A stretch of DNA of 20,000 bases from Psammoneis japonica. Taxonomy: Eukaryota. The stretch spans positions 294,053-314,052 of the forward strand of contig QPGO01000098.1 in the NCBI GenBank assembly GCA_008632985.1. The letters are read 5' to 3'. The notes under the pieces were generated by a model that had not been told where the DNA came from, made no database searches, and worked only from the letters and a program-made list of their open reading frames with translations. Numbering within the stretch: the stretch's first letter is position 1; every line of letters starts with the position of its first letter. The position numbers were made by a program, and so were the translations under genes. Shown piece by piece: positions 1-20,000 of the stretch.

Positions 1-2
1 AA

Positions 3-3000
3 GCGACGGCGCATGAGCCAGCGACAGTCGCTCAGTCTGGAGAAATGCTGTGCTCTGTTTGTCCACCAATCGGGCCAGTGGATCACTACATTGAAGACTT
101 TGTCAGTGGAGATGACATTGGACTGGTCACACGTGAGTGTGAGCTTGGAACTTGTCCTGGCCCCTGTCCCTCTCACGGCCACATTTGTGTGACGGGAGAG
201 GGCAACCGAGAGTGTGGAAAATGCGGAAAGACGTTTTGCCTGATGTGTGCAGTTAGAAACGAAGACGAATCTGGAAGCACCGACGTGGTGTGTGTCCCTT
301 GTCTTGGAGCCACAACAGATTCTGTAGATCCTGTGTCCAAGTTGTCAGAGAATGCATTGCGGGAGGCGCCAAGCGACAAAATTGAAGTGCCGGCTGACAT
401 GCCGATGGCGGATCTCCAGGAACTGTACATTGGCATTGTGGAGGGCGACTCAATGGACTCTTTGGATTCAAAAATGTTGGAGCAAGTGCGGCATCCATTG
501 TGCCACCCAAGAGCACTAGATTCGAATGAGAAAGTGTTGGATTTTGTGGCTGATTTTGACTTTCGAGATGGCGCTCGCTTTCTTCGTGATCGTGATCTCA
601 CCTGCATGCAGCGTTGTGGTGTCATGAACCTGTTGGCAGACCTTGTCACATTTGGGAAGAACAAAAGCTTGCCAAAGCATGCAGAGGTGCTGCCATCACT
701 TATCTCAAAATTCGCAAGCGAAGCAAGAGTCGACAGCGGAGAGCGTTTGATGAAGCGCTGCGCATGACACGCTCTCGACCCGAAATCGCCATCAATGCTC
801 CATGCACATGGCAGCATGATGGAGCACAATGGAGAAATGGGCCTCACAATGCATGACAAAATGTCACCATCGTTCAAGGATGGCATGTGTGCCGTGTCAT
901 CGGCATTTGCTGCATCCGATTTGTTGGCCAACAGATGCGAGTGTAAAGCTGGAGCGGAAAATCAGTCAGTGGTGGCAGAGGTTGGCGGGACCAGCACCGA
1001 CGATGCGGGAAAGCACGTGTGTGTACACTGCCTTCCGGTGCCGTGTAAGGTCACAATTCTTTTGATGGATGGTCTGGCAGAACACGCTCTTGTTGAGTTC
1101 TCGTCGTGTTTTGGCTGTCACGAGGAAAACAGCCCAGATGTTTCGGACAAAGAAAAATTGAGAATGTCCATTCTAACGCTGATGGATGCCGCCAGTTTTA
1201 AGAGTGCCGATTCTCTCCAATCGAAGTCGCCACATGAGCTGCTGCAAGCATTCGCGGTTGGTGCAGAGAGGGGCAAGAACAAGCTGCCCGACCCACCTGA
1301 CCCTGAAAAGTTGGGGCCAATGCGGAACTTCAAAAGAGTTTCACCAGAGGAAAAGGCAAAAATGGCATTGAAGATGAAAGAAGAAAAGACGGCAGCATCA
1401 ACCACGAATGTGGCAAATGAATCGGACACCTTGCCCGAACCAGATCATCTGACAACATCGCGGCTGTGCCGCACCTTCGCCAAAGTTCTCGCTGACAACA
1501 AAAGCTTGGATGAGACAATGATTGTCGGGCATCGTTTGCTTGACCTGCGTGCAAAGAAAGTTGGTGCAACTGATGCTGCCATTTCTTTGGTGGATGCTGG
1601 GCTAAGGCCGAGGGTCAAACAACTGTTCCAAGCAGCAAGAACCCGTGTGGATCCACGAACAAAAGCAGCAGAGGCAAAAAGGAAACTCGCAGCAGAACAT
1701 TCGGAGGAATCAGAGTTGCAACTGGAGGCGCAACCAAATGATGCAACGGAATCATCAAATGAAACAAAGCGTCGGGTGTCGAAACACCCGGCATCAAAAA
1801 GCACCCGTCGCTGCTGCTGCCAAAACTGCAACAACAACATTGCCACTGGTTCCAAGATTGTGCCGCCTGTTCCTGCCAAACCACCGGTGGGAGCCAGTCG
1901 CAACAGATGGATGACGCACTTCAAGAAACGGTTTGATTGACATGAATTTCTGCGACGAATCGGCGCAGATGAAAACGACTCATGCAAAGATCTCAGGATC
2001 TGCCTCTGCCACCCAGTGGAAACGACCACAAAATCTTTCACCGTGACGACACCAGCATTGACACCAGTTTCGTCACCACAAGGCGGAGAAGACGAGTCGG
2101 ACCATGAAAATGGCGAGTTAGAAAAAGGAGACGGTGCAGATGGGGAGAAAAAACCGACAGTGTTTTCCAAACGTGCTGCATTTGAAGGCCTGCCTGTTCC
2201 TTTGGGCGCCAAAAGCAACCGATCCGAGGCATCCCCTGCCACAACTTCTAAAGGGGTGGGAGAAGTGCGACAAATGGTGCGCTTTGCTGCTTTGGATCAC
2301 AAAGTTGGAGAAGAGGCTGTGCGAAATGAGTGTCTTGCTGTGCAGCAACGCACGGAAATTGAGCCGGGTGAACGAACCAAAATGATGGAAGAGGTCCATC
2401 CACATCTCCAGCAGTCCACAGGACCAGACCAGCACATCAAGTCGCCACCAAAGAAGAAGAGAGCCACCGAAATGACCAAACCTTCAAAGGGCAAACCGTC
2501 GACTGCCACTGTTCCGCCTGCAGTTGATCCTCACCCCATTTCGACTGCTGACGTTCAAACTCGCTGTGGGTTTGGATCCTTGTTGTTGCTGCTTTGTTTC
2601 ATTGCGGTTGTTTGCAATGGTGACATTTCTGCAATGATGAAAACAACAACAAGATTGAGTTGGTTTGAAGAATGGTTTTTTTTCTTTGAATTGCTTTGGG
2701 GGCGGTCTCTGCATCGCTGGGCAGATGCAGAGCGCACATGCAAAATGCACCACAAATGTCTTCAGAGAACATTCAAACAAAAGCTTGCTCTTGTTAAGTT
2801 GGCAGCAAATCGGTGGCCGCGACGCGTTTGTCACGAGGAGGACGTGTCCCTGCGCTCTGAGAAATGGAAGGAACAGCACAGAAACAAGCGTGTTGCAATG
2901 TGGGACAATGCAAATGTTGATCTGATGGGGAAGCCTACAGATGCAGATTTGCAGCGACTCACGCACTCACTTCATTGCGGCGGGAACTTGTCAAAGGCGG

Positions 3001-3439
3001 CATCTTTCTGCAACTTTGTGGGTGGCTTGGCGGCTGGGAGCTTTGGCTGGGAGCGGTGTCAGACTCAGACTGTTTAGAGAAAAGTGGGCTGATGCAGCAC
3101 CAAGAACAATTTCAAAAGATGGACCCAACCTCCACGCTGTCTTTCACAAACATCTTGGACAAGGGATGCCGGTGTGTTTTGGCCGCGTGGCGAGGAGGGG
3201 GGCAGCTGCTGCTTCAGCCATTCTTTGCTAAAAGTGATGGAAAGTTTGCCAGCCGTGAGGTCCTTTTGTCAGGTGCAGTTGCCAGTGACAGGTCGGGGAA
3301 TGAGCGAGCGGTCAAGCAGATGAAAATGAGCAACTTGATTGCTGGCGGCATTCATCAAAAACAAGATCTGAACAATTTTGCTGATGTCTGGATTGCCTGG
3401 GGTTTCCAATGCAATTTCATGCATGAGCCAGTGCTTTAA
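3..3439 (+). pseudogene. Large multidomain transposase (over 1100 codons, 5'-truncated): Cys-rich finger, SWIM-like finger, THAP-like finger, helical/HTH region, DDE_Tnp_4 catalytic domain
   Basis: ORFs 45..767, 795..1940 and 2016..3077 share one frame, interrupted by TGA at 765-767 and 1938-1940 (both plausibly CGA>TGA). A 1-nt loss near 2988 moves into ORF 2975..3439. Motifs: CECKAG...HVCVH (936-1028), CCCQNC...RICLCH (1812-2012), WP...WDN..V...P..ADLQRLT[H]SL[HC]GGN..KGG, W.GAVSD, ILDKG[C], QPFF...KF..RE...VA.DRSGNERAV, giving the D-D-E triad WDN/DKG/NER. Confidence 0.85.
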
Positions 3440-3659
3440 AACAACTGCAGCATTTTCACTTTACCTTGTAGAAGCTAGATGTTTTGTTTTGTCTTGTTGT
3501 TCTAGACTCCACTGTGTCGTTTCTGTTGTTTCGTGCGGGGCATGCTGACAGCCAAGTAACCCGGAAAGCAACCGAGAAATTCGAAAGGCACAAAGTCCAT
3601 TGCACTCCCAACTGGGGTGTTCCTTCCCTGGCGAGACTGCGAATGGCGCCTCCAAGGGA

Positions 3660-3690
3660 ACGAGGGGGTGCCATGTGACGTCGCCCACCC
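3660..3690 (-). repeat. Candidate right terminal inverted repeat (minus strand 5'-GGGTGGGCGACGTCACATGGCACCCCCTCG...)
   Basis: GGG-starting terminus, as is common in PIF/Harbinger-type TIRs, about 250 bp after the transposase stop and coinciding with the compositional break. The partner TIR and TSD are not visible in the window. Confidence 0.3.
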
Positions 3691-3699
3691 AAACTCTCC

Positions 3700-4550
3700 A
3701 TCAACAGCACTCAGCTGAAAGCCAGTGCAAATTGGGTTGTTGGTGCACACGTGTTGGAAAACAATGACAACCTTGAAAGAAAGGGGGTCACAAAAGCAAG
3801 CCATCATCTCTCAGCAGCGGCCACGCAAAAAACATTGAAACAGCAAGCTCAAGCTCATGGAAAGCTCATGCTGCTGCAGAGCCAATGACAAAAACAATGG
3901 CTTCATCACAGCACAAGCCAACAAAGGGTGCTGTCTGCCAGCACGGGTTTGTTGCCAGCTTTTGAAGAGCTGCTCCTGCACACAGCCCTGTGGCAAAAAA
4001 AACAAGTCACAAAACAGCAGCGCCAGAGTGATCTCAGCATGGCACTGTGCCACATTGAAATGATGTTGCAAGCTTTGGAGTTGTTGGCACCAGGGAAGGT
4101 GGCACATGAGTTGTCAGCATTGGAGCAGCAGCATGGCAGGCAGGTGGCAGGTGGTGCATCAGTGCATCAGCAGGTGGCATTTGAGTGCAGCGGGTGGCAC
4201 CTCAGCTTGTGGCGGCATTTGGAGCAGTCTTTGTTGGAGCAGCTGGCCAAAAGGTTTTTTGCAGTGAGGTGACAAGCTCCACTTCTTTGTCATCAACCAT
4301 GCTCACCTCACTGGCAATGAGAAAGCTGTCTGAGCACTCATCCACTGCTGGCAGGGATGTGCTCCAGGCAGCCCCGGGTGGAGCTCTCTCTGATGTGGGT
4401 CTGCAGAGAGCTCTGTGTGTGAGCTCTGCAGTTCACACACTGGGCAATGAATGTGTTTGTTTTCAAAATTTGAACAAACAACCACTCAACATTTTGGTGA
4501 CATTTGTGCATGCTGGCGCACCCTGCAGACACATCAAAGAGCTGCTTCAT
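3700..4550 (-). pseudogene. Degraded coding remnant of unknown function
   Basis: Protein-like frame with a Pro/Thr/Ala-rich linker followed by ...AAVL*LVFFATGL...EAIVFVIGSAAA*AFHELELAVS..., where the stops are TGA and can be read as CGA. Frameshifted; no family recognised. Confidence 0.35.
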
Positions 4551-4848
4551 GCAAAAACTGTGCAAAAAGTTGTTGAATGGATTGCCCAACAACTGTGCTA
4601 CAAACTGACACAAAATGTCACCAAAGTCATGCAAAAAAATGCATGTGCACAATGCACAACCTGTGGTGCACATGAAACAAAAACTCAAACTTGATTTCAC
4701 TCAGTGGAGTCGCACCTTTGCCCAGCAACAGTGGCGCTGGCTGGCCCACACTTCCAGCACACCCTCCTGGGGGTGAAGCAGAAGCTCATGCAGTCAGCCA
4801 GTCAATGTGCCACTTTGCAGTGACGCACACCAGAGACCACTTGTTGAG

Positions 4849-5930
4849 ATGAAGCTCTGCACAAGAATGAGGACATTGCTTTCTTTTGGAGAGAACACAA
4901 AGCACCCAAACTGCCACAGCAAAGGATGGTCACGTTGTTCAGAAGAGGATTCAAAGTTGGCACAAACTCTGAGAAAAAAACCTTGCTTCCAAGGATGGGT
5001 CTTGTCTTTAACAAAGACTGGCCAAGTTCCACATTTGCATGTGATGGAGCAAAAGCAAACAGCTCACTGCTTGCTGGCAAGTGTGGAAGAGGGGCCATTC
5101 AGGACTTCATGCAGGTGTTTGAAACAGGGAGCCTTGGCAACATGATGAGAAGGATGTTGGAAGAAACACTGCTCTCACACAGAAGTGACAGCAAATCTTG
5201 CACAGAAATGCCAATCCTTGCAGCAAATGGATGATTGTCCAGTGGTGCCAATGGTTTGTCCAAACAAACACACACAAGCACCACAGCAGGAACAGTGCTT
5301 TCACCACATGAAGTGAAGAAATTGAGCAGCCAGCAGGAGAAAAGGAAATTGTTGAGGGCTGATGGGTGTGGATGGAAGTTCATTGCATGGGAAACATTGT
5401 GGTTGTCAGTTGGTGTTTCTGAAGTGTGCAGAATTTGCACCAGATCCTGCACAGAAAATGCGCCCAATCTGCAAAAAATTGCCAAATGAGTTGACAAGCA
5501 TGCAAACCACAAGACATCAATGCCAGTCATTTTCCATTGGAAAGTGCTGCATTTCATCCTGAAATGAGGGGGCACCAATGTCAGAAGTGGCCAAAAGGGT
5601 TTCAGGGGACCCAGTGAAACACCATCTGAGAACACATGCAGGGGCTGTGAGTGGGCAGCTCATGTCAGGAAATGTGTGGTGCATGACCAAAACAATGCCA
5701 ATGTCACAACCCAGCAGTGTGAGGCCCCACTCAGAGCTGGAGACTGTGTGTTTTGGGACATGCAGATGTCATTTGCCGGGACAAGCTTCTGTGCCTTCTT
5801 GCATCCCATCCCTTGGTGGTGACACATGCAGTGCAGCAGGTCAAACAATTTTTTGGCACAGCACATTTCAAAAAAATCCTCTTCTCACCTTTTGCTTGCC
5901 ATTTTTTTCACTTTGTGAAGGTTGATGTGG
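4849..5930 (+). pseudogene. Degraded coding remnant of unknown function
   Basis: ORFs 4926..5234 and 5235..5489 are in one frame separated only by TGA, and the frame continues through further TGAs. No Tyr, excess Met/Cys/His. No family recognised. Confidence 0.35.
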
Positions 5931-6020
5931 AAAGTGCAGTTGGGCCTGCATTTGCTGGGAGGAGGTTTGCCCATGAAGAAAGGAAGGGGGCTGAAGCTGC
6001 CTCTGTTGGGGTGGCAACTT

Positions 6021-6138
6021 TGCATCAGCAGCAGCACAACCCACATTGGGGACATCTCTTCCAGCTGGCATTGAGTTGTTGCATCAGCAGCAGCACAACC
6101 CACATTGGGGGCATCTCTTCCAGCTGGCATTGAGTTGT
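6021..6138. repeat. Tandem duplication, 2 x 59 bp, one mismatch
   Basis: TGCATCAGCAGCAGCACAACCCACATTGGGG[A/G]CATCTCTTCCAGCTGGCATTGAGTTGT at 6021-6079 and 6080-6138. Confidence 0.97.
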
Positions 6139-6566
6139 TGTCATCAAAGCCATAAAAATCATTGCTGGTTGGACATGCAACATCGTCTTGAAGAATTGAC
6201 AAGTTTGCATGACAAAGCTGCTGGCAAGCCAGTGCCAGCCGGTGTGCAGTGTGACATTGAAGGGACACCGCCAGGCATCCCTTTTGCATTTGATGCTTTT
6301 GATTTGCACAGATCACATGCTTTCTTTTGAAACAGTGGCTTTTTGGTCTTTGCTGTGAGTGCATTGTGTGAAGATGCACCAGCTTTGTAAGTTCTTTCTT
6401 GGACTGCTTTTGGCCATGGGCCAGCACAGCACTGTGGACACAATTCCAAAAAAAAATCCAGTGGAGCAACTCCAGTGAAAAAAACAAATCCATGGCTCCA
6501 CATCAATGTGAAATGGAATCATTGTTTCCATCAGCAAAGCACAGAATGAGTCTTGCTTCTTGTGGC

Positions 6567-7102
6567 TCCAGTGGGTGATGGAGAACTCATGTCACTTGAT
6601 CATTGATCAGAGTGCTTGACTTCTGCAACCGGACAGAAGTGTCATTCTTCAAAAACTGCCATGTTGAAATGGAGTGCACAGAGAGATGCGATCTCTTTTG
6701 CATTTTCCTTTTCCAAACTGGAGAGTTTGTAGTCAACCAAGTGCACAGTGCATTTCATCCCTTTGCCCCACAGTGTGGCACCTTGGCAGTGTCAATGAGA
6801 AGATCATCACAACTCTCATTGGCCACCTTGCACCACTCCTGATCAATTCCAGTGGGCAACGGAGATCCCGCATCATTTGATTATTGATCAGAATGTTTGT
6901 CATGTGCAGTGGGGTGGAAACATCCTCATTCAAACTGCCAGAATCAAGAAAAGACATGGTGATGCAATCTCTTGCACTTTCCTTTTCCAGATTGCAGACT
7001 GCGCAATCAATCACACATCCACCGCATTCCGTCCATTTTGCCCGGCGGTGGCACCTCTGCACAATCAACAAGAAGATTGTTGCAATTGTCAACGGCCACC
7101 TT
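6567..7102 (-). repeat. Old diverged tandem duplication (period about 275-280 bp), probably a duplicated protein domain of a minus-strand pseudogene
   Basis: Colinear anchors in both copies: TCCAGTGGG (6567/6848), TTGAT.ATTGATCAGA, AAACTGCCA, GATGC.ATCTCTT, TTTCCTTTTCCA, GTGGCACCT, GGCCACCTT (6821/7094). Minus-strand translations share LEKE.A and RWP. Confidence 0.75.
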
Positions 7103-7331
7103 CATGCCCCTCCTCCAACCACTGTTTCTTGAGCATGATGACTCCAATGAAATCATCTGATTTTACAGCAGGCCTGAGTTTGGCTGCTCGCTCCCTTTCC
7201 GGCTGAGAATGTGATGCACACGCTGATTCACCTCGTCCAGGCCCAATGCTGTACGGCAGTAGAAGTTCGTTGGACAATTAAGCTGTCTCGACAATTAAGT
7301 AGATTAGCAAGAGAGTGATATATCATAATAT

Positions 7332-8690
7332 CTAGTGTCTCTGCAAGAATGAATGCTTTAGCAGCGTTTTGTAATGCGGGCGATCTCGTGGGGATATCTT
7401 TAGCATGGATTTCAAAAAGTCAACAGCTTGCGCCTTTTCCTCTTCGCTTACTCGGTCATTGTCGAGTCTCGGGAAAACTGTCTCTTCGCAATTCATCAAG
7501 AATGGCTTGAATTCTCGCTTTTCAATGTCAGATCGATCCAGGTCTACAAGATCTGCAAGGTCAAACTCTCCATCGTCGGCGTGACTGCTTACAGGAATCA
7601 TGACATTGCCTCCAATGTGTTCAAGCGTAGCTCGCATTCTATCGTAGTGTACTGGGGGATCTTGCTTGAATGACGACCCGTCGTCCCATGAACAAGGGAA
7701 ATATATTAAGCGAGCAAACAGAATGCCAATTGACCAGACGTCATATTGCCAAAGATTAGCGTATCGCAGCTTGACTTTTTTTCCATTCATGACCACGTGC
7801 TCAATCCAGGCTTCGGGTGGGACAATGCCAAAGTTGACGTCGATAGCATAGAAATCTTCATCCACAGTTTGGCCTGAATTCCAGTCAACAAGGAGGGCAC
7901 CGCCATCGCTCTTGTCATAAACAACGTTGGTTCTGACAAGCAAATCGCAATTGTTGAGACCAAGACCAATTGCGTAGTCCATTTGACTTAGAAGACTTCT
8001 CATAAACGTGCGAATTTGATGCAAGCTTCCCATGTATTCATCCTTGGTAACCCAGTCTGAAACAAAGTCAAGATGCGGCACGATGTGAACCACCAGTCGA
8101 TCTTCTTTGGCAAGACGCGTGGCTTGTTTTGTTGGCATGGAATTCCAAAACGTTCGAATCTTGTGTCTGCCACTTACAATGTTCTCTGTTGCGTTCAGTC
8201 CAAGAAAGGGATTTGTCACATTCCTGTCAGCAAACACCAGCTCCATTATTTTGTGCGTTCGTGCTGCCTCCTTATCTGCATTCAAACGTTCCATTGCATC
8301 AAGTTCGTACGTTGCATATCTCATATACCATGCAAGTTTGAGTAGCATTCTTGACGGTTCTCTTTCTTCTTGCTCCCACCACCACTTTGGAAGAGTTACA
8401 TCACAAACTAAGTTGACACCACCACGCGCGTAGTATTTACCAAGCACCAAGTCATCAAACTTCAATTCTCTTTTGCTTCTTGGTGCTTCTAGTGGCAACT
8501 TTTGAATCATTTCCTTTTGATACGGAAGATTGGATGCATCCATTGTGGTATTTCTGAGTAATAAAAATTGTGTCAGTTGTGAAAATATCCAGGCAACAGC
8601 CAAGAGCGTGAGATAACGACCGATTTTGGCACCAAAGAGACGGCTCTTCCTTTTCGCTGACGACGCCATGGTTTGTGCAAGCTTCGCCAT
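7332..8690 (-). CDS. Atypical Ser/Thr protein kinase-like protein with N-terminal signal anchor (452 aa)
   Basis: Intact ORF. Basic patch KRKSR then hydrophobic YLTLLAVAWIFSQL. Kinase subdomains: GKYYARGG, LLK, NCDL...N (HRD position), DWN (DFG position), PPE, DVWSIGILF, DFLKSMLKISPRDRP..LLKHSFL. Confidence 0.88.
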   Translation of the reverse strand: MAKLAQTMASSAKRKSRLFGAKIGRYLTLLAVAWIFSQLTQFLLLRNTTMDASNLPYQKEMIQKLPLEAPRSKRELKFDDLVLGKYYARGGVNLVCDVTLPKWWWEQEEREPSRMLLKLAWYMRYATYELDAMERLNADKEAARTHKIMELVFADRNVTNPFLGLNATENIVSGRHKIRTFWNSMPTKQATRLAKEDRLVVHIVPHLDFVSDWVTKDEYMGSLHQIRTFMRSLLSQMDYAIGLGLNNCDLLVRTNVVYDKSDGGALLVDWNSGQTVDEDFYAIDVNFGIVPPEAWIEHVVMNGKKVKLRYANLWQYDVWSIGILFARLIYFPCSWDDGSSFKQDPPVHYDRMRATLEHIGGNVMIPVSSHADDGEFDLADLVDLDRSDIEKREFKPFLMNCEETVFPRLDNDRVSEEEKAQAVDFLKSMLKISPRDRPHYKTLLKHSFLQRH

Positions 8691-9128
8691 TGTGGAACGC
8701 CGAAAATCAAAATGCAGATTTTTTTTTTGCTAAAGCGATCGACCGTCAATCCATCGTACGTTGAGACAAAAAGGCAAAAATATGGAGAAATTGGCATCCG
8801 AAATCTGTCTGAAACAAAGAAAAAGCGAGGAAAATGTTTGGAAACGCCAAAACCAAGGAGAAAGACCGTTGGGACGTGCCGTTGGCGATTCAACGGACGT
8901 CACTGCAGTCTTTGTATGCTAAATATCTCGAGATCGGTCGCCGGCAGAGTTTTTGAAACTCAGGAACGCCGGCCCAGCACGCGCCCACGCTGTCAAGCGC
9001 AAACGGCAAACGGTCTTATACACACACAACCAACGACCAACGAACACATTGAACGACCTCATATCGACCGGTACCCCCTGTCTGTTTACGCTTCCTTCGT
9101 GGACATTTAGTCCAGCACACCGTGCACC

Positions 9129-10121
9129 ATGACAAAACCCGGCAGTACGAGAGAGAACGGAAAAGGAGTCGCCAGTGACGATTCCAGCAAGTCGCATGAA
9201 ACCGAAAGTCGAAGATACAGGGCAAGAAATTGCGCGCTGGCGATTTTCACCCTGTGCGCGTTAACGGTTGGAATAATGGCAGGTAAAGCCGGTTCATATC
9301 GAGAAAAAGGGTCTTTGGAAGTGCATCCGGCGGTGGACTCAAATTTCGATTCAGAGAGTGACCTATTGAATGTGGGCAAAGGTGGCAGCTGCAAGAAGCA
9401 ACCAGATACAAAAATAGGCAACACCACAGACGGCGATTTGAACGGCACACAGAATGGCGGTAAGGCAGAAGACTGGGAGAGTTTTAATGCCTTGCAGCTC
9501 TACGACTACCTCGAATGTGTCTATTATTCAGAATACGAGGTGGAGTTTCCAATTCGCAGTCAGGAGACCTATCAATTAATGCGAGCCACATTTCACAATG
9601 TAGTTGGACCAGAAAAATCTACAATCGGTCTACCCTTGGATGGTTCCAATGGATTCAAATACCCATACGTCGTCAAACAAAGCCCTGGTAAAGGCCGAGG
9701 AATCTTCGCTGCTGCAGATATTCCCAAAGGAGACCTGGTTTGGTCCAACGATAGAACCGCCATATTTCCAAATTCTTGGTATTACCGAAAGTTTTTGCTA
9801 TCGTTACCTCCAAGCATTGCCTGTGACTGCATGCAGTGGACTTATATCTACGATCTATACGGCTTGGGTAAGGACAACAAGAAAATCATGATTGATCTCG
9901 ATGAAGGAGCACTGTGCAATGACGGCGAAGCTGACGACAGTAGCGACATTACCAACATCGGTTGGGATAGAGATTTTGCCAGAACTGCTGATTCAGGAAA
10001 CGGAATGCACCTTTTAGCTCTTCGGGATATCAAAGCCGGAGAAGAGTTCCTTTGTGACTACACGCAGTTTACATCTGAAGGCGAGGTGGACTGGGCAAAT
10101 CATGATCTCAGCTGGGTTTGA
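9129..10121 (+). CDS. SET-domain protein (putative lysine methyltransferase) with N-terminal signal anchor (330 aa)
   Basis: Intact ORF. RRYRAR followed by CALAIFTLCALTVGIMA. SET motifs VKQSPGKGRGIFAAADIPKGDLVW, EGALCND (NH position), ALRDIKAGEEFLCDY. Confidence 0.9.
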   Translation: MTKPGSTRENGKGVASDDSSKSHETESRRYRARNCALAIFTLCALTVGIMAGKAGSYREKGSLEVHPAVDSNFDSESDLLNVGKGGSCKKQPDTKIGNTTDGDLNGTQNGGKAEDWESFNALQLYDYLECVYYSEYEVEFPIRSQETYQLMRATFHNVVGPEKSTIGLPLDGSNGFKYPYVVKQSPGKGRGIFAAADIPKGDLVWSNDRTAIFPNSWYYRKFLLSLPPSIACDCMQWTYIYDLYGLGKDNKKIMIDLDEGALCNDGEADDSSDITNIGWDRDFARTADSGNGMHLLALRDIKAGEEFLCDYTQFTSEGEVDWANHDLSWV

Positions 10122-10250
10122 CGCGAAAAAAAAGATGCCTTGTAGCAATGATGATGACATTGACGACATCGACGACGACAGCTCCGCAGCTACCAGATGT
10201 TATTCAATGGCAACACCGAACCTTTACACAAGAGATGGATCAACAGATTA

Positions 10251-11850
10251 TCATGAGCTAGCGCCATAATTCATAATATTGTAGTTCAGTTCCAAGGGTG
10301 AGGAACAAGAATTTGCGGCAGATGCAATGCGTTTTGCTTTAATTAAGTCGTGTAGATGTCCCAAGTTTCCAGTGCCTTTTTTGAATGATGTTGCCCCTGT
10401 GCCCGCCTTTGTTCCTGCTGCGTTCTTGATGGGTGTTAGCACAGTGGCGTGGGAACAGCAAGCAACTGGGACCAGTTTTGGCCCATCCCTTGCTGACAGT
10501 GTTGTGAAATTGCAGTCATGACTTGTTGGATGACAGAAATGGTTTGGGGTGTGTGTGAGATTTGCTGTTTTTGTGAGCTCAGTTTTGTTTCTCCACATAT
10601 TTTGCTGGGTGCTGAGTCAGAGTTTTCACTTTCCATGGTTGTTGCAACATGATGGTGCAGTCCATGATTGACTGCTCTGTGATTGCTTGTCTTGTCCCAG
10701 CATGTGCTTGCAGAGCTTGCCAATGCACCAAAACCTTGGGTGCATCTTTTGCTGCACACCAAGGTTGCCAGATTCTGTGCATTGGCAGGCACCACCAGTT
10801 GCAGTGGCCATGCTTTTGTTGTCAGTCATGCCCCACTTTGCCAAAACATTGAACATGGCTTCATGACCAGAAATTCACAGATTGGTTGACGTTGCCCATC
10901 AGATTGGGAGAGCAAATGCTCTTTAAAACAAAATGAGCCTTTGGTGTTTTGCACTTCCACAGTTTGGCAAGCCAAGCCAAGCAGCCAGGATTTGGTCAAC
11001 AAGAGAGAACGTTTGAGACTCTGAGACTGCAACCTCGTTGATGCACCAACTGCATTTTTGCTCAAATCACCCATGGAAAAACTGACACAATGGTGTCATT
11101 TGGCTCTGCCAGAAGGGCTTGAGCCAACAATGGTGTGGCACCACAATCCTGCTGTGTCTTTGCCATGCTGCACCAAATGTCGGCAAAATTTGTCAAGGGC
11201 TCTTGGCTGTTGCCTGTCTCCTCTGCACACTTTCTTCACTGAGGTTGGGTGATGTTCATTTGTGGCCACAGATGTGCAACCTCAGCAAAGGTGACTCCAT
11301 CTGCACACCAGCGTTGCTGGTGTGGCGATGCTTGTTGGAGGCTTGACGCTGCGCACTGCCACACACATGGCGGTTGGAGCCTTTGCGCCAGAGTGTCTCT
11401 TGTCTTTGTTTGAGGCTTGGCAATGCCATCACAAATGGGGTTGGAGATTTTGCACTGCTGTCACTTGTGGCAGTTGGAGCCTTTGTGCTGGTGCACTTGT
11501 GGCAGCAGGTTTGAAGCTTTTGCACCCCGTTGGGTGGGGGCACCACGAACTTGTTGGTGGTGGCCGGGGTGGTTGGAGCTTTTGCACTGCTGTCACTTGT
11601 GGTGCTGGTTGGAGCCTTTGTGCTGGTGTCATGCATGGTGGTTGGAGGCTCCTTTCTAACATGAAAAATGACAAACAATTCCTCCTTAGATTGTCACACG
11701 GAGGCAGTCCCTCTGAGCTTGAAGTCTGTCTTTCATTCCGTGATTGTGAGAAGACCGTGCGGGGAGACAAAACGACGCACGATGACACACAAGTCATTAC
11801 GCACTGTATTTCACAACTTCGTCGAGGGAGAAGCAACAGCAAGTTTGATT
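10251..11850 (-). pseudogene. Hypermutated, frameshifted remnant of a host-like gene with a Ser/Thr/Pro-rich KAPT-repeat linker
   Basis: Minus-strand fragments (TSTKAPTSTTSDSSAKAPTTP..., ...PKLVPVA[CC]S[H]ATVLTPIK...) in shifting frames. Only 2 TpA in 10441-11655 (near 10598 and 10924), CpG also low. Boundaries approximate. Confidence 0.55.
11372..11648 (-). repeat. Imperfect internal repeats encoding (T/A)KAPT units
   Basis: GGTTGGAG.TTTTGCACTGCTGTCACTTGTGG...GTTGGAGCCTTTGTGCTGGTG at about 11439-11493 and 11571-11628; a shorter GGTTGGAGCCTTTG copy at 11372. Confidence 0.85.
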
Positions 11851-11898
11851 TGTGTTTGTGTGTATTGAACTATATTTTCAAAAACGAGACACATCATC

Positions 11899-12791
11899 AT
11901 GAGTGAAGACTCTCCGATATCCCCTCGTCAGGCCATGGCAAAACAGTCTTCGTTTGCACGTTCCTTTTTCAGTTCCGAAGCAGCGGCAAACCCTCCCGTC
12001 TTTGATGGTAACGACGATGACGACGACGATTACCGTCCCGACAGTCGTCGTTTCTTCCCGCCCAAAGTCGAGTAGTAGCAGTAGACGCAGCAAGAAACCT
12101 GCAGTCAATACGGAAAACCTTGCCATGGCTGCCGCAAGAGATACTACTACCCACAACAAGAAACCCGCAGCAGCAGCTGCAGCAGCACTCAAGTCGGATT
12201 CCGCTGCTGAAGATTCGTGGTATACCGGTGGCAATGATCATCTCTTGCAGGATGCTCCACCCGGGTGGAGACAAGACGACGGATGAAAGTTGGAACGATG
12301 ATGAAGTATTGGAACAATACAGGCTCATGGCACAACACGAAGCCACCGCACGTGTTTTGGAAAACACGGGCTTTGATGCACGGGAATACGAACGCCGTCG
12401 CAAGCTCGAACAACAGCCCGAACCCAAAAAGGACGGTAGTAGTAGTCTGTATGGTGCGAGCCGCAAACCACGACAGAAATTACCGGAACCACGAAAGATT
12501 GTCACGTCCAGCAGTGACATGTCTGGCATCAAACCCGTGGAGGCTCCCAAACCGCCTCCGCTCAAGCATACGCGATTGATTGAACAAAAGGTGGAGCGTG
12601 TGCCCGAACTATGTCCTGGACAAGCCATTACGGGGAGTGCGTCCGGACAAGTGTTTTCCGCGGATGAAATTGTGGTGAAATGCTTGGGGTCGTGCGACAA
12701 GCAGTTGCGTGTGCATCGGTATGCCACTCTGGTGAGTTGTCCGGTTTGTCACACGGTAAGTCCAGCCACGGCTATTCGTGCGGGTAATTAA
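11899..12791 (+). CDS. Hypothetical low-complexity protein with C-terminal zinc ribbon (LSD1-like spacing); two apparent +1 frameshifts
   Basis: ATG at 11899 (MSEDSPISPRQAMAKQSSF...), continues in the 11903 frame after about 12050 and in the 12120 frame after about 12281. Ends CLGSCDKQLRVHRYATLVSCPVC. Confidence 0.7.
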
Positions 12792-12935
12792 ATGTGCTGT
12801 GAAACAATGTACTGGCAGAAAATATCCTAAGGCTGGAGAACAAGAACGGATTGCACAAGAAGATTTATACAATGTTAGCCTGAAACTAAGTAAAGTTTGT
12901 TTATGCCTACCCCTCTGCGAGAAAAACTCTCCGAC

Positions 12936-13394
12936 TTAGTTCATTTTATCCAATGGCCTATTGAAACCTCCTTTACGATTCATGTATTGTCGGTATTTGC
13001 GTGCCTTGTTTTTGGCCGTCGCTCCCCGTGCCGCCGAGCTCGCGTTATCCTCGACGGCTTGTCCCTTTGTGGATGCAAAATCACCAAATCCCAGCAACCG
13101 TTGCATTTGTTCTTGTTCGTCCAATCCCTCCAATTCTTCCTCGTTCACAGTTACAAATTCTTCCTTGGGTTTGGGGCGTAATTTTTCTTTTTCTTTCATT
13201 TCGTTGGGTTCTTCCAATTGGCGTTCTTCGAGTTCATTTTCGGCACGCAATCGTGCCATGCGTTCGCGGCGTTCTTGCTCGAGTCGTTCGCGGCTTGCAG
13301 CAGGACTCTGTGACCGAGTCCGTTTTTTGTTTCGGGTAGTTTTTTCGGTTGCAACAACGCCATGGTGCCTGTCATCTTTGTTGCGGTCCGACAT
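12936..13394 (-). CDS. SNRNP27: U4/U6.U5 tri-snRNP 27 kDa protein (DUF1777 family)
   Basis: R/E-rich N-terminus and the signature C-terminus MQRLLGFGDFASTKG...RKYRQYMNRKGGFNRPLD. Confidence 0.93.
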   Translation of the reverse strand: MSDRNKDDRHHGVVATEKTTRNKKRTRSQSPAASRERLEQERRERMARLRAENELEERQLEEPNEMKEKEKLRPKPKEEFVTVNEEELEGLDEQEQMQRLLGFGDFASTKGQAVEDNASSAARGATAKNKARKYRQYMNRKGGFNRPLDKMN

Positions 13395-13716
13395 GGCTTT
13401 GCTGCTTCTTCTTCTTCTTCTTTTGTTTTATATTACAGTGTGTATTATTGTTGCGTGTTGTCTGTTGCGCTGGCTGTAGTATGTTGTGTTGGTGCTTTTC
13501 TTTTTCGGTTTGGCCTTGTGTGCTTCCCGGCCTGAGTGTGATGGATGGACAGACATTGGAACGAAAATCTGACCTCACATTCTTTTGCGCGTTTTTTTCA
13601 CACAAACGAGAAAATTCTTCAGAAATTTTACTCATTACAATTAATTGTTGCATTGACTGTAATATTGCTATTGATGTAGAGTTTGAGCCTTGATAGGTTT
13701 TTTTTTCTTGTTGGTC

Positions 13717-15187
13717 ATGAGAGTTCTCGCAAGATCCTCCGTGTTTTCATCATCACTTGCTCCATGCGGCAAAAAACGACGACACTACTTGAGTGTCTAT
13801 GCCATGGGTGAAGGGTGGACGGGAGCATTGGGAACGGGGGACTTGGATTCCAACATTGATGGTCACGACGATCAAGAGGAGGCGTCTCAAATACCACCGC
13901 CGCTGGTATTCGAGGGCAAAACAAGAGCTCTTGCGACCGGTTGGGGTCACACAGCACTCATTACTGAAAACGAAAACAAACTCTACGTTTGTGGTCGACC
14001 ACAAGATTTTCAAGCTCTCTTGAGATTAAAACGTTTACCGGGCTTTTTACGACAGCATGCCGTCAATCATGCACTGCGAAACTATTTTACTCGAGAACAA
14101 GACACGACACTGGTCGGTCGGGTCTTGTCGTGGATGGTGGGACAAGAACTCGATGGCCAGGACGGTCCGTGGGCGAATGCTCGACAACTTTCCGTCTTGC
14201 CCAATTTTACACCTATACCACTACCCGACGGGGATGAGCCGTCGTTGAATACAAATCAAAATCGAATTTTAGCGGCGAGTGCCGGTTTGACGGCTGTCAT
14301 TGGAAAAAGCGGTACACTTTATACGTTTGGCACCAACACGCGTGGTCAGTGTGGAGTGGGGGAAACGAGCAACAATGTATGGACACCCCAACGTGTGGTG
14401 GGACTCAGCACACAATTTGCACACGACGGACGCGACAAGTTAGAACAAGAGTTTCCCATGGTGAGTGTCGCCTTGGGATTGCAGCACGGACTTGCCCTGG
14501 ATGACCAGGGCAATTTGTTTGCGTGGGGCAAGGGTGAACGTGGCCAACTGGGGCAAGGACAACAACAAGAGGTGCAAAGCTCGACACATGCCTTGCGTGT
14601 CACTCGTTTCCAACTTCCCAGTAATCTTGATGGATCACGACGACTTGAGGACAATCCCGTTGTCACAAAATTGCCGCCGGCATGAATCGATCGGCGGCTC
14701 TCACAAAAGACAATCATGTCTATGTGTGGGGCAAGAATATATTGCCGCCGCCACTTGCCGACAAAAAGAAGGCATCCATGATTTCAGACTCACCCTGGCC
14801 ACACTTTGTTGAGGGCCTTCCCAAAATATGCAAGTATTGGACATTGCCTGTGGCTCACATCACACGGCCATTTTGCTCGAGGACGGCAGTGTCTTTTGCG
14901 TTGGCCTTACATCCGACACGGCCCAACTCGTGTCGCACGCCATGGAAATTGTTCCACCCGGTGTCGTGGAATTGCCGATTCAACAGTTTGATGCTCACTT
15001 TGATCGAACCACAATTGTGGGACGAGGTGGCAAACAAGTCTTGCAGGTTCACTTGTGGCAAGATGAGGAGCTACAAGAAGATGGAATCTTTACTCCGCCG
15101 TGGGTCGAGCATATCTTGAAGGATGATGACACGAGAATAAGAGAGGTACAGCGTGGATGGTTGCACACGATCGTTGCAACAATGTAG
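13717..15187 (+). CDS. RCC1-repeat protein, possibly mitochondrion-targeted; two apparent -1 frameshifts in A runs
   Basis: RCC1 repeats GWGHTALI, LYTFGTNTRGQCGVG, VALGLQHGLAL..GNLFAWGKGERGQLG, IACGSHHTAIL, GWLHT. Adding one A near 14668 gives TKIAAGMNRSAAL and one A near 14825 joins to MQVLDIACG. N-terminus is R/S-rich and lacks acidic residues. Confidence 0.88.
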
Positions 15188-15455
15188 TACCTAGAAAGAA
15201 GAAATCTCGAGTAGTAAAGAAAAAGAGCTAGTAGAGCATTACTTTTTTAGAACAAAGTTTGTAGTCACGCACAGCGTCTACTCGGCGCTAATGGCTGCGA
15301 GACGCAACGTAGTCCTGAATGACTCCATGGAGCTCATATGGCTTGAATATGTACCGACAACGACTTGTGTCGTCCTCAATCATGTAGATATGTAAGAATA
15401 TGTATAGCCAAAAATAAAGAATATGCAAGGTGTTTTGATGGTCATCAAAATAGGC

Positions 15456-15725
15456 TCAAATGATAATGTTCATCGAGTCGGAGCCCAACGCAACTTCGAC
15501 ACTGTCGTTGTTGCACGGATAATCCATGATTGGATTGGCTCGTTGAAGCACTCTGCATGCATCTAGAGCTGCTCGTGTAATTTTTTCATGTCGTCGGAGG
15601 GACGATGGTCTTGATGGCATGGTGGCATCCTGGTGACAACCGCCGCACGACGAGTCGGATGGAACGAAGAATGCTGCTGCTACAGGAAGCATGCAAAGGA
15701 AAACGCCGTATTCTGCACCCGTCAT
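15456..15725 (-). CDS. Possible small hypothetical protein with a signal-peptide-like N-terminus
   Basis: ATG start then GVFLCMLPVAAAFF (AF cleavage-like motif). May extend to about 15280 through a stop or frameshift. No family recognised. Confidence 0.3.
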   Translation of the reverse strand: MTGAEYGVFLCMLPVAAAFFVPSDSSCGGCHQDATMPSRPSSLRRHEKITRAALDACRVLQRANPIMDYPCNNDSVEVALGSDSMNIII

Positions 15726-16163
15726 GTTGACTACTTGTGGATGGAAAGTGTTGCGATAGCAAGTTGCAAGCTGTTGATGGGTTGGTCGTGTTTGTTTTCT
15801 TTTTTTTGTGAGGCTCTATTTCGGTGCTATTTTTTTGCCGAATCTTTCGTTCGTTGAAGAAAACGATCGCGTTAACGCTTTCCGTTATTTATAATATTCA
15901 ACATCATATTTCGTTCAATGATAAGCCGTTTTCGGATTCATCGAACTATCAGCGTTTTACGGGATAGTAAAAGATACTCAGTACTAAGTGATTATTCTAA
16001 TCGACATTGACATATTTGATACTGTGTCCGGTCATTTACGGACATCTTTTTTCGAAAACAATCCAGGATAGACGGGTGAGCTTTTAGCCTCTCGAAAAAC
16101 GGAAGCAAGCCGTTGCATCGCAGTCCCATTCGAGGACAAGTAGTGTCTTGCATTCCAGAAGAT

Positions 16164-16250
16164 GCTCTACTCTACTGTAGTAGCTACTCTATCTCTCTAG
16201 TAGTAGAGCTAGAGAGTAGAGGGCCATACTCTCTACTCTAGAGAGTAGAT
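16164..16250. repeat. CTA/TAG-rich low-complexity tract with short inverted repeats
   Basis: CTCTACTCT (about 16165) is complementary to AGAGTAGAG (about 16213); TCTACTCT-AG-AGAGTAGA at about 16232-16249. Confidence 0.6.
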
Positions 16251-16630
16251 GGAGGGGCTGCCCTTGAACCGCGTGAGCAACAATGAGCAGTGTGGTCCAG
16301 CGATGCACAGTTTCTCATTATGGTGTTTCGGAGCATGATTTGCACCATTTCTCGGATGCTCTATGTGCAATCGTAAAAACTCCGTTACAAAGCGATGAAA
16401 CGGTGGGATCAAGAGACAAGGATGAGGAAGCAAAGCAAGGAAGAAATGTGGAGATTTGATGATGAACTGCACGGGACCATGTGCGCGACGTAACGGTGGA
16501 TCAGAGATTCTAGACGAAGCAATCTCTACAATCGATTTAGATGGCAACAAACAAATGCCAGCGTTACCAACAGGTTTCACCGAAAGTTTTGTCCCAGGGT
16601 GCTGCCGTCGCTGCATCGGTTGCATGGATT

Positions 16631-19600
16631 TCACATGAAACATCCTCGAGGTTTATTTTCATGCACTGGCACCCGTGCGGTGTCATCCCTCTTCGTGCGC
16701 TCGTTGTAAATTTCAGTGTCGATGGTGTCGGAGGCCAAGTACCGCCACACATGAACCTGCGAATCCAAGAAGCGATATGATTAGAAAGTTGTTGGAAAAA
16801 CTGCTCAAGTAACCCCGACCGAATCGTGGCTTGGACTTACTGTTTTTGTTTGACCATATCGACGAATACGTCCAATTGCCTGTGTCTCGTACGCATCATA
16901 TTGCTGAGGCTATCAACAAGCAATGGGTGGACCTGCCAGCAGAGAGCGCAAAGCATTGCAAATTTTGTTAGACACGTCCCGTCGAGAGCCGAGAAAATCA
17001 AAGTCAACTTACAAATACTGCGTGGTTGCAAGTGGTTAGATTGACACCCGCCGACGTCTCATCATCTAGCGTCAGCAAAAGACATCTGGGGTCGTTCGCA
17101 CCAGGCTCGACTTTCTGGAGTACGTCCAACGCCTTTACCTGTTTTTGAACGGAACCCTTCACTTGAAGCGTCTTGACATTCCGTTTTTCAAGCGCTTCCG
17201 CTACCTTCTCCTTCAAGTCCTGAAATTGTACGAAAACTATGACTCGATCTCCATCCTGAACTAGACTCTGCACCTTGTCGACAATCAAAGTCAACTTTGC
17301 TCCATACTGTCCCCCACCCGGGCCCAAGTCCAACTTTGCGCCAAGACTGTCTGCGGGAACAACATGGGCGCGTTTTATCTGAGCTCTACACGACGGGTCA
17401 ATGCAGGTTTCTGCGTCGGCACACTTGTTTAGACAACGCAAGCATCCCACGTGCCCGCAGCAAGATAAGACTCCAGAGTTTTCCATATCGATTCCCTTCT
17501 GTTTCATGCACTGTGGCGAGGGGCAGCTAATGGTCGTCTCCTGCTGAAACTTGCATACCCATTGAAAATAGCGCAAACTCCGAATACGGCCACAGAGCTC
17601 TTTGCAATCAGATCTGACAGTATGCATATGGTTTCGCAACGCCCATTTCATTTCTACCAGAGAACTCTCGTCTTCGTCTTTTTTGGAGGAACGCTTCCGC
17701 TTCTTGCTTCCTTCCTCGTCTTTTGGAATTTTATCTGACGCAGCTTCAACAATCTCTGCCAGCTTGCTGTGAATTTCGTCGTCCGCGCCACCCGGAATGG
17801 ATTGGCTCAGCTTCACATCAGCAAGGAAAATTGACAAAGTGTCTTGAACCTCATCCTTTTCGGTTCGGGACAGCCTTCCCAGTCCGGTTGTAGCTACATG
17901 CAGAACAATGCGAGAAGACGAATGAGCTAAGCTACAACGGACTTATGCGCGCAAAGCGTTGAGACCGCATGAAACCCTTACCGTCAAGATGCATTTCCGC
18001 TGCTTCAGTGCGCTGACAATCGAGTCTTTGAGCTGGTTTTCACATTCCTGTAGCTGTTCTTGTCGAAGCTTTGCGATAAACGAGCAAGTTTCAGCCGCTG
18101 TTGCTTTTTCCTTCCCACACATGTTGAAGTGAGAACACCGCTTCAATAAAGCCTCCTCAGCAGACGCTGAGTTTTCAAGCACCTTTTGCATCCGATTGTC
18201 TCTGTCTGACTGAGTTGCCTTTTTCGATTTCCGAGCTTTCTTCTTGTTCATTTCTAAGCTCTTTAGATGAGTTTCGAGCTCCAGATAAATAGCTTTTTCC
18301 GCCGGGGGGAGGTCAACAAATTGCATGTGCTCCTCGAACTTAATTTCGTCAATCTCGGCAATGTTTTGTCTAACAAATCGATCGAGAAAAAGCTGGGCAA
18401 CCTCGTGTCGCCGTTGATGCCATTGAACTGACCGCATTTCGAGCATTTCGGAGAATTTCTCAAGACCACTCGTCTCGCTGGAATTCTTGTTGCCTCGCCT
18501 GGTACCAGGTAAACTTTCATCTACGCCCAAATGGATGCCTAAAAGCTTTGCTAAGCTTTGAACGTCGTTGAAATTCTCGTGAGGTGGCGTGCCTGACAAG
18601 CACCAACGAAAGGAAGACTTGAGACCAAGAACAAGCGTGAGCACACGAGCTCGGTCCTTCTTTTCTTCCAGGTAATGAAACTCGTCTACGGTAGAGATGT
18701 AAATACAACATGTGGTCAGCGCGAAAGAGAAATGTTCGTGCCGATTGTGCTCATGGCATCCACGTACCTACGACAATTCTATTCCAAAAGAACATTTCCA
18801 GGGGCGGGCATTTCATTTTGCTACTGTCTTTTTTGACTTGAGCCGTCGATAAACCCCATGGATCAAATTCCGTCTTGACCGTACCTGACTTGCCTTTGGC
18901 GCGAGATGATGAAAGTTTTCTATCACGACCACTGCTTCCGACTTTCGTTTGCTCCTCTGAAACAGCTTTGTACACTGCTTTCTTGCCATCTAGACGAACC
19001 GTCTCCTCGACTTCTTTCTCTGAGTGTGCAAAGGAGTCTCTCTCGATGCAATCGAACACATTAGAACAGTCTCCCTTCAAAGAGACGACTCGCTCCGAGA
19101 GCCCTGTTAGGCATTCGTTGTAAACCGCATCAAAATGTTTGCCTCCCTTTCCGCTGGGTAAACTGCTGGGTCAGCCCCGGCAAGCCGCGCCAATCTACGG
19201 AAGTACAATTCCGAGCTGAGAACGGTGAAGTTCACAATGACAATGTCCGCTTCTTGGATTTCTTTCGACGTTATTTTGTTGAAGCCGGACATGTCTTTGA
19301 GAACGATAACCCTTTTGCTTTCGCCAAGAAATTTCTTGACTTCGTTTGGCTGTAGATGCAAGGAGCATATTTTGCGGTTTGTTAGATTTTCAAGTCATCA
19401 GCACGGATACGAAGTAAGAAACGAAACGAGAAGGAGAACGTACCCACTGAGACATCAAATGACCGGTACAATGACCAACGTTGCACGGGTGGACACGAAT
19501 GAGTTACTGAGCTTTTCGAGAATCGCCGGCGGATCTCCGTTTACACTTGGAGCGGCATCGATGAGCCCAAGCGTAATGGCAGTTTTTCCATAGCCGACCT

Positions 19601-20000
19601 GGTCAGCGACGATTCCTCCTCGAACTAAAACAGGACGTCGCACTCTCGCTTCCGCACGCCAGTTCAAACTTGGTAGAACGCTCTCCGCAATCTCTTCTTC
19701 CATGAAGGGATCTTTGGACGATTCTTGCGACAGCATCCAAGAAAGGGAGCGGAGCTGCTCCGGTCGCAGGTTGTAAGCACTGAAATTTGGAGGTTGCTCG
19801 GCTTCAGGCGTCATTTTGTTGGATGTGAAGTAAAGTTTCGGAAAATTGCCAGAGCTTTTCTCCACGTGCGACACAATCCTCCAATGAAAACAGATTTCTT
19901 CTCCGCAACCTTCGCATTCTCACGCTCCAAAGATTGTGGGAAGAGCCCAAAGCGCGATTCGTGAGACTGTTGACGTTGCATCCAACCTGAAACTTCAATT
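16631..20000 (-). CDS. DNMT5: 3' part (SNF2 ATPase with inserted RING finger) of a DNMT5-family cytosine DNA methyltransferase; 5 introns; several apparent 1-nt frameshifts
   Basis: Motifs I recognise as DNMT5-type SNF2: LRPEQLRSLSWMLSQE, EEEIAESVLPSLNWRAE, RGGIVADQVGYGKT, PPLEMF..RIVV/DEFHYL, RWCLSGTPP, FVRQNIAEIDEI, AEEALLKRCSHF, RING (C..C...CGH.GC..C...C...C), HPLL...YETQAIGRIRRYGQ. GT-AG introns at 19350-19443, 18686-18767, 17894-17981, 16933-17012 and 16757-16840. Stop TGA at 16631-16633. The methyltransferase domain would lie beyond the window. Confidence 0.85.

Follow-up and report, generated by a model that had tools for sequence, protein, structure and literature searches.

The locus

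The window analysed here is a stretch of 20,000 nucleotides (nt) from Psammoneis japonica (GenBank assembly GCA_008632985.1, contig QPGO01000098.1, positions 294,053 to 314,052 of the forward strand), and all coordinates below are window coordinates. The window is eukaryotic; the Pfam domains detected in its long open reading frames (ORFs) are SET, protein kinase, SNRNP27, RCC1 and SNF2/helicase. Between the SET-domain gene and the next gene on the same strand lies a tract of 1.3 kb, here called the island, from which the dinucleotides TpA (TA) and CpG (CG) have nearly disappeared and which ends on its right side in a short repeat array (Table 1). A preliminary description of this DNA had reported the scarcity of TA and had taken the tract for a host-like gene, possibly a duplicated one hit by a process resembling repeat-induced point mutation (RIP). 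The scarcity of TA is real. The gene is not recognisable by any of the tests described below, and a positional mark is favoured over homology as the rule by which the tract was chosen.

Table 1 Features of the island and of its immediate surroundings in window coordinates
Feature	Position	Strand	Basis or content
SET-domain gene, intact left neighbour	9129..10121	+	330-aa ORF; Pfam SET E 2e-8; period-3 signal 7.3; TA normal
TA-rich unconverted spacer	10122..10356	.	13 TA in 235 bp; probable 3' end region of the SET gene
Island proper, TA- and CG-erased tract	10357..11656	.	Counts, rho values and change points
Left shoulder, partly converted	10357..10450	.	1 TA (10437) and 3 CG (10404, 10421, 10448) left
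Repeat array, 5-6 copies of the 21-nt core GTTGGAGCCTTTG[CG/CA/TG]C...	11366..11650	.	Periods 33 and 36 (TRF); start spacing 67, 33, 99, 36
Unconverted spacer before right neighbour	11657..11899	.	7 TA in 243 bp; CG density normal from 11699; probable promoter region of the right neighbour
Right neighbour gene	11900..12791	+	ORFs 11903-12286 and 12021-12791; TA normal

A bounded tract depleted of TA and CG

Positions 7201-10300 and 11701-20000 of the window served as the normal reference, with a TA rate of 3.5% and a CG rate of 5.9%. Within 10441-11655, two TA remain (at 10598 and 10924), exactly the number given in the preliminary description, where 42.5 are expected (Poisson P ~3e-16). CG, the loss of which had gone unmentioned, is erased alongside TA, with 14 left of an expected 71.4 (Poisson P ~1e-16). 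Direct counting of the same interval gives 176 TG and 119 CA. The TA-free gaps of the island reach 733 and 326 bp, the longest in the normal parts of the window being 181 bp, and all 88 overlapping 1,300-bp chunks cut from normal sequence contain at least 29 TA and at least 54 CG. The TA-poor island is therefore real and far beyond chance.

The missing dinucleotides appear to be still there in altered form. Over the whole tract (10357-11656) we count 3 TA (rho 0.04) and 16 CG (rho 0.20; 76.4 expected from the normal parts), and TG and CA are in excess (rho 1.74 and 2.15). Relative to the normal parts, TA in the tract falls short by 42.5 and CG by 60.4, and TG and CA exceed expectation by 94.2 and 26.1. 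When these are pooled, the deficit of TA and CG (-103) is about the size of the excess of TG and CA (+120), indicating that the missing TA and CG are present in the tract as TG and CA. CpG depletion with a matching excess of TpG and CpA within a bounded tract (10351-11697) is, by sequence composition, what methylation-driven CpG decay leaves. The two products are not balanced. TG and CA stand at 190:122 over the tract, and the plus strand is rich in T and G (T 30% versus A 19%); by thirds of 10357-11656 the ratio is 70:39 on the left, 52:50 in the middle and 66:33 on the right. A preference for A-to-G and C-to-T change on the plus strand would give such a bias, and so would an ancestral skew.

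The edges of the tract were placed by two-change-point likelihood fits on the sites reading TA, CG, TG or CA. The fit for TA gives a tract of 10357-11643, with TA at 3 of 315 TA/TG/CA sites inside and at 117 of 544 outside; the fit for CG gives 10351-11697, with CG at 16 of 337 sites inside and at 175 of 593 outside. The two tracts, fitted independently, share their edges to within ~55 bp. Edge placements are 10353/10357 on the left and 11643/11657 on the right, and the intervals supported within 2 log-likelihood units (2-lnL) are 10351-10463 (~100 bp) and 11621-11795 (~170 bp). Graded edges of 150-200 bp, as described earlier, are not seen in these fits: the edges are sharp at the resolution that the density of sites allows, and on the left the spacer is TA-rich up to 10353, partial conversion being visible only at 10357-10450. 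Beyond this left shoulder, 10449-11311 retains merely 4 CG and 2 TA.

Sequence on both sides of the change points (10357 and 11643-11697) is normal. The tract sits between the stop codon of the SET gene (10121) and an ATG at 11900, with ~235 bp left unconverted on each side, and the neighbours are as unaffected as had been stated, the TA count per 200 bp being 5-13 over 9100-10300 and 5-9 over 11700-12700. The gene-sized resolution that had been attributed to the mutagenic process holds and is in fact finer than a gene, given a 1.3-kb tract with edges within ~100 bp and two unaffected genes around it.

The island in an independent DNA run

Our view of the rest of the genome is provided by the Logan contigs of one DNA sample. 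This independent run shares 0.86 of the sampled 31-mers with the window, which fits a divergence of ~0.5%. One of its contigs, 2,487 nt long and with a word depth of 59, spans 9677-12165; aligned to the window, it shows 11 letter differences and 2 gaps. The run thus reproduces the TA- and CG-free state of the island, which makes a base-calling artefact unlikely.

Four of the differences lie within the tract, at 10703 (TG in the window, CG in the run), 10810 (CA and CG), 10868 (CA and TA) and 11094 (TG and CG). In all four cases the run has CG or TA and the window has TG or CA. No substitution of another type occurs in the tract, and the flanks have 3. We counted as residual every site at which the window, the run or both read TA or CG, with flanks from the same contig. 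Of these sites, 4 of 23 differ within the tract and 4 of 115 in flanking sequence, an odds ratio of 5.8 (Fisher p 0.026).

An orphan tract without a recognisable gene

The host-like gene previously seen in the island was not found by any test, whether of reading frames, periodicity, codon usage, Pfam families or homologues. All frames are broken by 5-10 TGA, and there is neither a longer ORF nor a signal peptide. Period-3 analysis gives a signal of 0.25 in 10441-11250 and of 2.5 in the right end, where the repeats lie; in the controls the signal ranges from 2.4 to 8.6 for six real genes of the window and reaches 13.6 in a TA-erased coding block at 3-3077. Because this block keeps its signal although its TA has been erased, TA erasure does not abolish coding periodicity.

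A codon model was trained on the host genes of the window after in silico erasure of their TA and CG. In none of the six frames did a third of the island exceed +7.4 bits. The erased coding block, which served as an independent positive control, reached +158 bits, and the erased training genes reached 6.9-30 bits per 405-bp chunk. The minus-strand frames of 11251-11655, which include the proline- and threonine-rich (PT-rich) one, scored -2.5, 0.4 and -10.7 bits.

Searches for relatives were equally negative. A Pfam search of the six frames, with stops written as X, returned 0 families at E ≤ 0.1, and the only rows up to an E of 1 were Miff (0.86) and CUT (0.17). The PT-rich minus frame has no homologue among 662 word-sharing candidates and no match by phmmer against 1,835,955,588 representative proteins; for the minus frame with the fewest stops, no homologue was found among 8,000 scored candidates. 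The Atlas assigns the 126-aa PT-rich ORF a recognition of 932 and, at best, a score of 0.76, values like those of shuffled sequences; 91 in 100 proteins of known families reach a recognition of 2300. Rfam finds 0 families in the island at gathering scores, and the number of tRNAs is also 0. The island is an orphan tract, not a recognisable gene.

The repeat array and copies of the island

The two repeat variants quoted in the preliminary description had been placed correctly, CTTTGCGCCA starting at 11381 and CTTTGTGCTG at 11481, and there are five copies of the 21-nt unit. Columns 14-15 of this unit read CG, CA, TG, CA and TG across the five copies, as expected if one ancestral CG had decayed independently in each. 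The array partly keeps its CG (9 CG, rho 0.34 in 11301-11656). PT-rich words such as 'STKAPT', the supposed linker, are the minus-strand reading of the array at 11366-11650.

Additional contigs of the independent run stack only on 11412-11679, where the summed word depth is 201 and 117 versus 59, and six loose ends of other contigs there bear a motif of the GGTTGGAGCCTTTG type. The rise in depth and the six motif-bearing ends indicate that the array family is present at other loci of the organism. Counted by eye, the six 30-nt ends contain 0 TA in 180 nt, versus ~6 expected at the background rate.

Copies of the rest of the island were not found in the places searched. In the window, a search with exact 26-mers in a purine/pyrimidine alphabet gave 1 chance match, blastn and tblastx gave nothing above an 18-nt match, and the top score of gapped blastn in the purine/pyrimidine alphabet was 33, compared with 30-43 in 20 shuffles. 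In the independent run, no second contig covers 10340-11143 at ≥80% likeness; the record set is a filtered one, so that a single copy is unproven. A motif scan of metagenome contigs returned 52 loci with one match each, about the number expected by chance by our own estimate, and none resembles the island beyond 24 nt; the same scan of viral contigs returned 2 single matches.

Signs of a mobile element were also sought within the island. The best inverted match between its edges in the purine/pyrimidine alphabet, to which transitions are invisible, scored as a possible terminal inverted repeat (TIR), reaches 18, and 10 shuffles reach 15-20. The six-frame Pfam search contains no transposase or reverse transcriptase domain, and a repeat search of the island gave no terminal repeat pair; target-site duplications and the ends of long terminal repeats (LTRs) were looked for by eye only. 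The island may still be a decayed fragment of a DNA transposon, a miniature inverted-repeat transposable element or an LTR element.

A spared duplicate next to the erased tract

The SET gene provides a control for the role of duplication. Its 3' part (9689-10102) is matched over 417 bp by a second contig of the independent run, of similar depth and ~84% identical (68 differences, 3 gaps); past 10102, the contig of this paralogue diverges completely. In a stretch of 116 bp for which every difference was listed, the paralogue keeps 4 of the 7 TA of the window and has 6 CG, and its differences are a mixture of transitions and transversions. The TA content of the SET gene is normal despite this ~84% identical paralogue over at least 417 bp.

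Targeting of duplicates in the manner of RIP, which the preliminary description had proposed, is not supported by this arrangement: the duplicated gene is untouched, and an orphan tract ~240 bp away is erased. The evidence speaks against duplication as the trigger. The sparing of the SET duplicate, the confinement to 1.3 kb and the coincidence of the TA and CG edges together favour a positional or chromatin mark over homology sensing of the RIP type.

Other TA-erased blocks of the window

The window begins with a 7.1-kb TA-erased block, which has a coding and a non-coding part. In its first half (1-3550), TA is erased (rho 0.11) and CG is nearly normal (rho 0.74). A single plus-strand frame of 1,146 codons (3-3440) runs through it. 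Its first 1,025 codons (to 3077) hold 2 TGA, several others follow, and its coding periodicity (13.6) is unmatched elsewhere in the window. The sole homologue of this frame is P0001, an unnamed NCBI protein of 1,570 aa without a Pfam domain (E 5e-67, 26% identity). Tyrosine makes up 0.2% of the coding part versus 3.2% of P0001, and the tyrosine positions of P0001 are often cysteine or histidine here. The frame resembles a copy of some large orphan gene from which TA has been erased; the ORF of this coding block had no usable match in the Atlas.

The second half, a 3.5-kb block at 3551-7100, has 7 TA (rho 0.03) and 37 CG (rho 0.18) left. A six-frame Pfam search of it gave no credible match, the only row up to an E of 0.1 being a Zn-ribbon at 0.026, below the cut-off. 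This block stops ~230 bp before a kinase-like gene at 7332-8729. TA and CG tracts coincide in this block, as they do at the island.

A model for the erasure and its alternatives

Based on the observed composition, edges and mass balance, on the lack of a coding signal and on the presence of the tract in an independent run, we consider it fairly probable that the island is a non-genic, silenced tract that was marked by position rather than by homology and was hit by TpA-to-TpG/CpA hypermutation together with CpG decay. Mutation in situ, silencing and a deaminase are the inferred parts of this account. The tract, which looks orphan and non-coding, occupies the greater part of the spacer that separates the 3' end of the SET gene from the next gene. 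It is probably what remains of an inserted or repeat-bearing element, possibly one carrying a dispersed minisatellite, given that the array at its right end also occurs at other loci. Inside it, the transitions from TpA to TpG/CpA and from CpG to TpG/CpA would have gone near to completion, leaving the flanks as they were. The CpG loss may be the ordinary decay of methylated CpG and would then point to past cytosine methylation. TpA erasure would require a different agent, for which an adenine deaminase acting on DNA is a candidate. Because the TA and CG tracts have common edges, a single positional mark, most likely a small methylated and silenced patch of chromatin, may define the target of both.

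A more specific proposal can be put forward only tentatively: that the mutator reads a positional mark (chromatin or methylation), that its action can be limited to a 1.3-kb patch of unique DNA that is not a transposon, with edges no wider than 100 bp and ~240 bp from the next start codon, and that the process is still active. The last element draws on the residual TA and CG sites of the tract, which are ~5 times more often polymorphic than those of the flanks. If the proposal is true, such mini-islands would be natural reporters for what recruits DNA adenine-editing activity in a stramenopile.

Several points weigh against a marked and hypermutated tract. Block 1-3550 loses TA and keeps CG, and hence TpA erasure needs no CpG decay, the two processes are separable, and the idea of a shared mark is not general. 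The strong strand bias between TG and CA may partly reflect ancestral composition. As to what the island was before, no homologue, window copy, TIR or unmutated ancestor was found, and mutation in situ is deduced from the composition, the repeat copies and four polymorphisms only. As a spectrum of new mutations, these four differences to one run comprise one at TpA (TA versus CA) and three of CG versus TG or CA. Their polarity would need an outgroup, and the finding of all four in the converted state in the window has a chance of 1 in 8 when either lineage is allowed. The overall density of differences is also not raised, with 4 in 1,300 bp of the tract and 7 in 1,190 bp of the flanks.

We think it improbable that the island is instead a duplicated host gene that contains a PT-rich linker and that a RIP-like mutator, guided by homology or small RNAs, has inactivated. 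The minus strand of 11366-11650 does give words rich in S, T, P, K and A (TSTKAPT, DSSAKAPT), three of the repeat spacings (33, 99 and 36) are multiples of three, the fourth (67) not being one, and the motif recurs at other loci in fragments that are free of TA as well. Against this stand the lack of a period-3 or codon signal in any frame, the PT-rich one included, the absence of a Pfam family in six frames and of a homologue, the shuffled-like recognition of the PT-rich ORF in the Atlas, the 5-10 TGA per frame without a longer ORF or a signal peptide, and the untouched duplicate next door. We also give little credence to an account without any local mutation process, in which foreign or mobile DNA arrived already poor in TA and CG or selection keeps the composition as it is. 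The orphan nature of the sequence, a composition unlike that of its surroundings and the failure of the window searches to find an unmutated ancestor would agree with such an origin. Against it, the deficit of TA and CG is matched by an excess of TG and CA, repeat copies differ as CG, CA and TG at one column, four of four differences to the independent run are of the TA/CG versus TG/CA type, and unrelated coding and non-coding blocks of the same window bear the same signature. The motif scan of viral contigs, with its 2 single matches, may also count against it.

Errors of assembly or base calling at modified bases, giving false TG and CA calls, form the least probable of the explanations weighed and are close to refuted. 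Three 1-base indels relative to the run in 4 kb (11850/51, 12052/53 and 12262) suggest some consensus error, and all four differences in the island have the window in the TG/CA state. However, the contig of the independent run carries the island with just those four differences in 1,300 bp, and the differences in the flanks run in both polarities.

Relation to known mutational systems

One 2026 preprint, on a chlorarachniophyte, is the only description to date, as far as we know, of regional TpA-to-TpG/CpA hypermutation, with the targeting rule and the enzyme unsettled. According to the parts of that preprint drawn on here, TpA-restricted hypermutation in Bigelowiella natans affects integrated DNA of nucleocytoplasmic large DNA viruses (NCLDVs) and virophages; the signature was shown experimentally for silent integrated viral DNA, adenine deamination in DNA was proposed, with an ADAT2-type adenine deaminase acting on DNA, and the region that is mainly hypermutable occurs as a single copy and is transcriptionally silent (Mettrop et al., bioRxiv 10.64898/2026.01.13.699255). 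A process of this kind is already known, and the island would be a further case of it. It passes the cut-offs used there (rho TpA ≤0.43, rho CpA+TpG ≥1.52; 10.64898/2026.01.13.699255) with rho values of 0.04 for TA, 1.74 for TG and 2.15 for CA. Both systems change TpA to TpG or CpA depending on the strand, are confined beside normal genome and leave a long-term footprint in which TpA is scarce and CpA+TpG abundant. Because the main target in B. natans is single-copy and silent, no repeat is required there, and its TpA-poor clusters are rich in unannotated sequence.

The two also differ. The B. natans regions measure 25-186 kb, with clusters called on at least three 1-kb windows, whereas the island measures 1.3 kb with edges within ~100 bp. 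TpA is depleted 1.8-fold in the NCLDV region of B. natans and is nearly exhausted in the island. The term 'CpG' occurs 0 times in the main text of the preprint, and in the island CpG is erased over the same tract as TpA. B. natans is moreover a chlorarachniophyte, and de novo events were measured in it. A full-text literature search, judged on titles and the beginnings of abstracts, found no description of TpA erasure in diatoms. What the island adds, in a different eukaryote, is confinement to 1.3 kb between working genes, edges that coincide with CpG decay and the sparing of a neighbouring duplicated gene. It is useful mainly as a small, clean-edged example with a built-in control in the SET duplicate.

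RIP, known from Neurospora and other ascomycetes, converts CpA to TpA, which depletes CpA/TpG, and is triggered by duplication, with every copy hit and thresholds of ~400 bp and ~80% identity. The island resembles its products in having dinucleotide-specific transitions in a non-genic or mobile tract, destroyed frames and intact neighbouring genes. The chemistry is the opposite, as RIP makes TpA and the island loses it, and so is the relation to copy number, as the one proven duplicate is untouched here and searches of the window and of one run found no second copy for the greater part of the island. RIP was rejected as the process on these two grounds, the removal rather than the making of TpA and the normal TA of the SET duplicate.

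Decay of CpG in methylated transposons accounts for another part of the pattern. In the diatom Phaeodactylum tricornutum, CG methylation marks transposons and is maintained by DNMT5a, according to the part of the source used here (PMC9998398). A CpG rho of 0.20 with an excess of TG and CA in a sharply bounded, non-genic tract is similar; the loss of TpA, which block 1-3550 undergoes without loss of CpG, is left unexplained by such decay. Editing by deaminases (ADAR hyperediting, APOBEC and enzymes of the ADAT2/TadA type) shares with the island the A-to-G change, the 5' T context and the clustering in selfish or foreign sequence. TadA-type enzymes prefer a 5' U or T. ADAR, however, acts on RNA, whereas the island bears its footprint in genomic DNA, where it affects both strands and has positional bounds.

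The right neighbour

Relative to the independent run, the window has one base more at 11850-11851, at 12052-12053 and at 12262. The extra base at 12052/12053 splits the right neighbour gene into two frames and, by frame arithmetic, dropping it would join them; it is either an error of the assembly consensus or a real frameshift allele. Two contigs of 112 nt, at word depths of 26 and 38, cover 12136-12247; one is identical to the window and the other departs from it in 9 places, and these look like two haplotypes in the sample.

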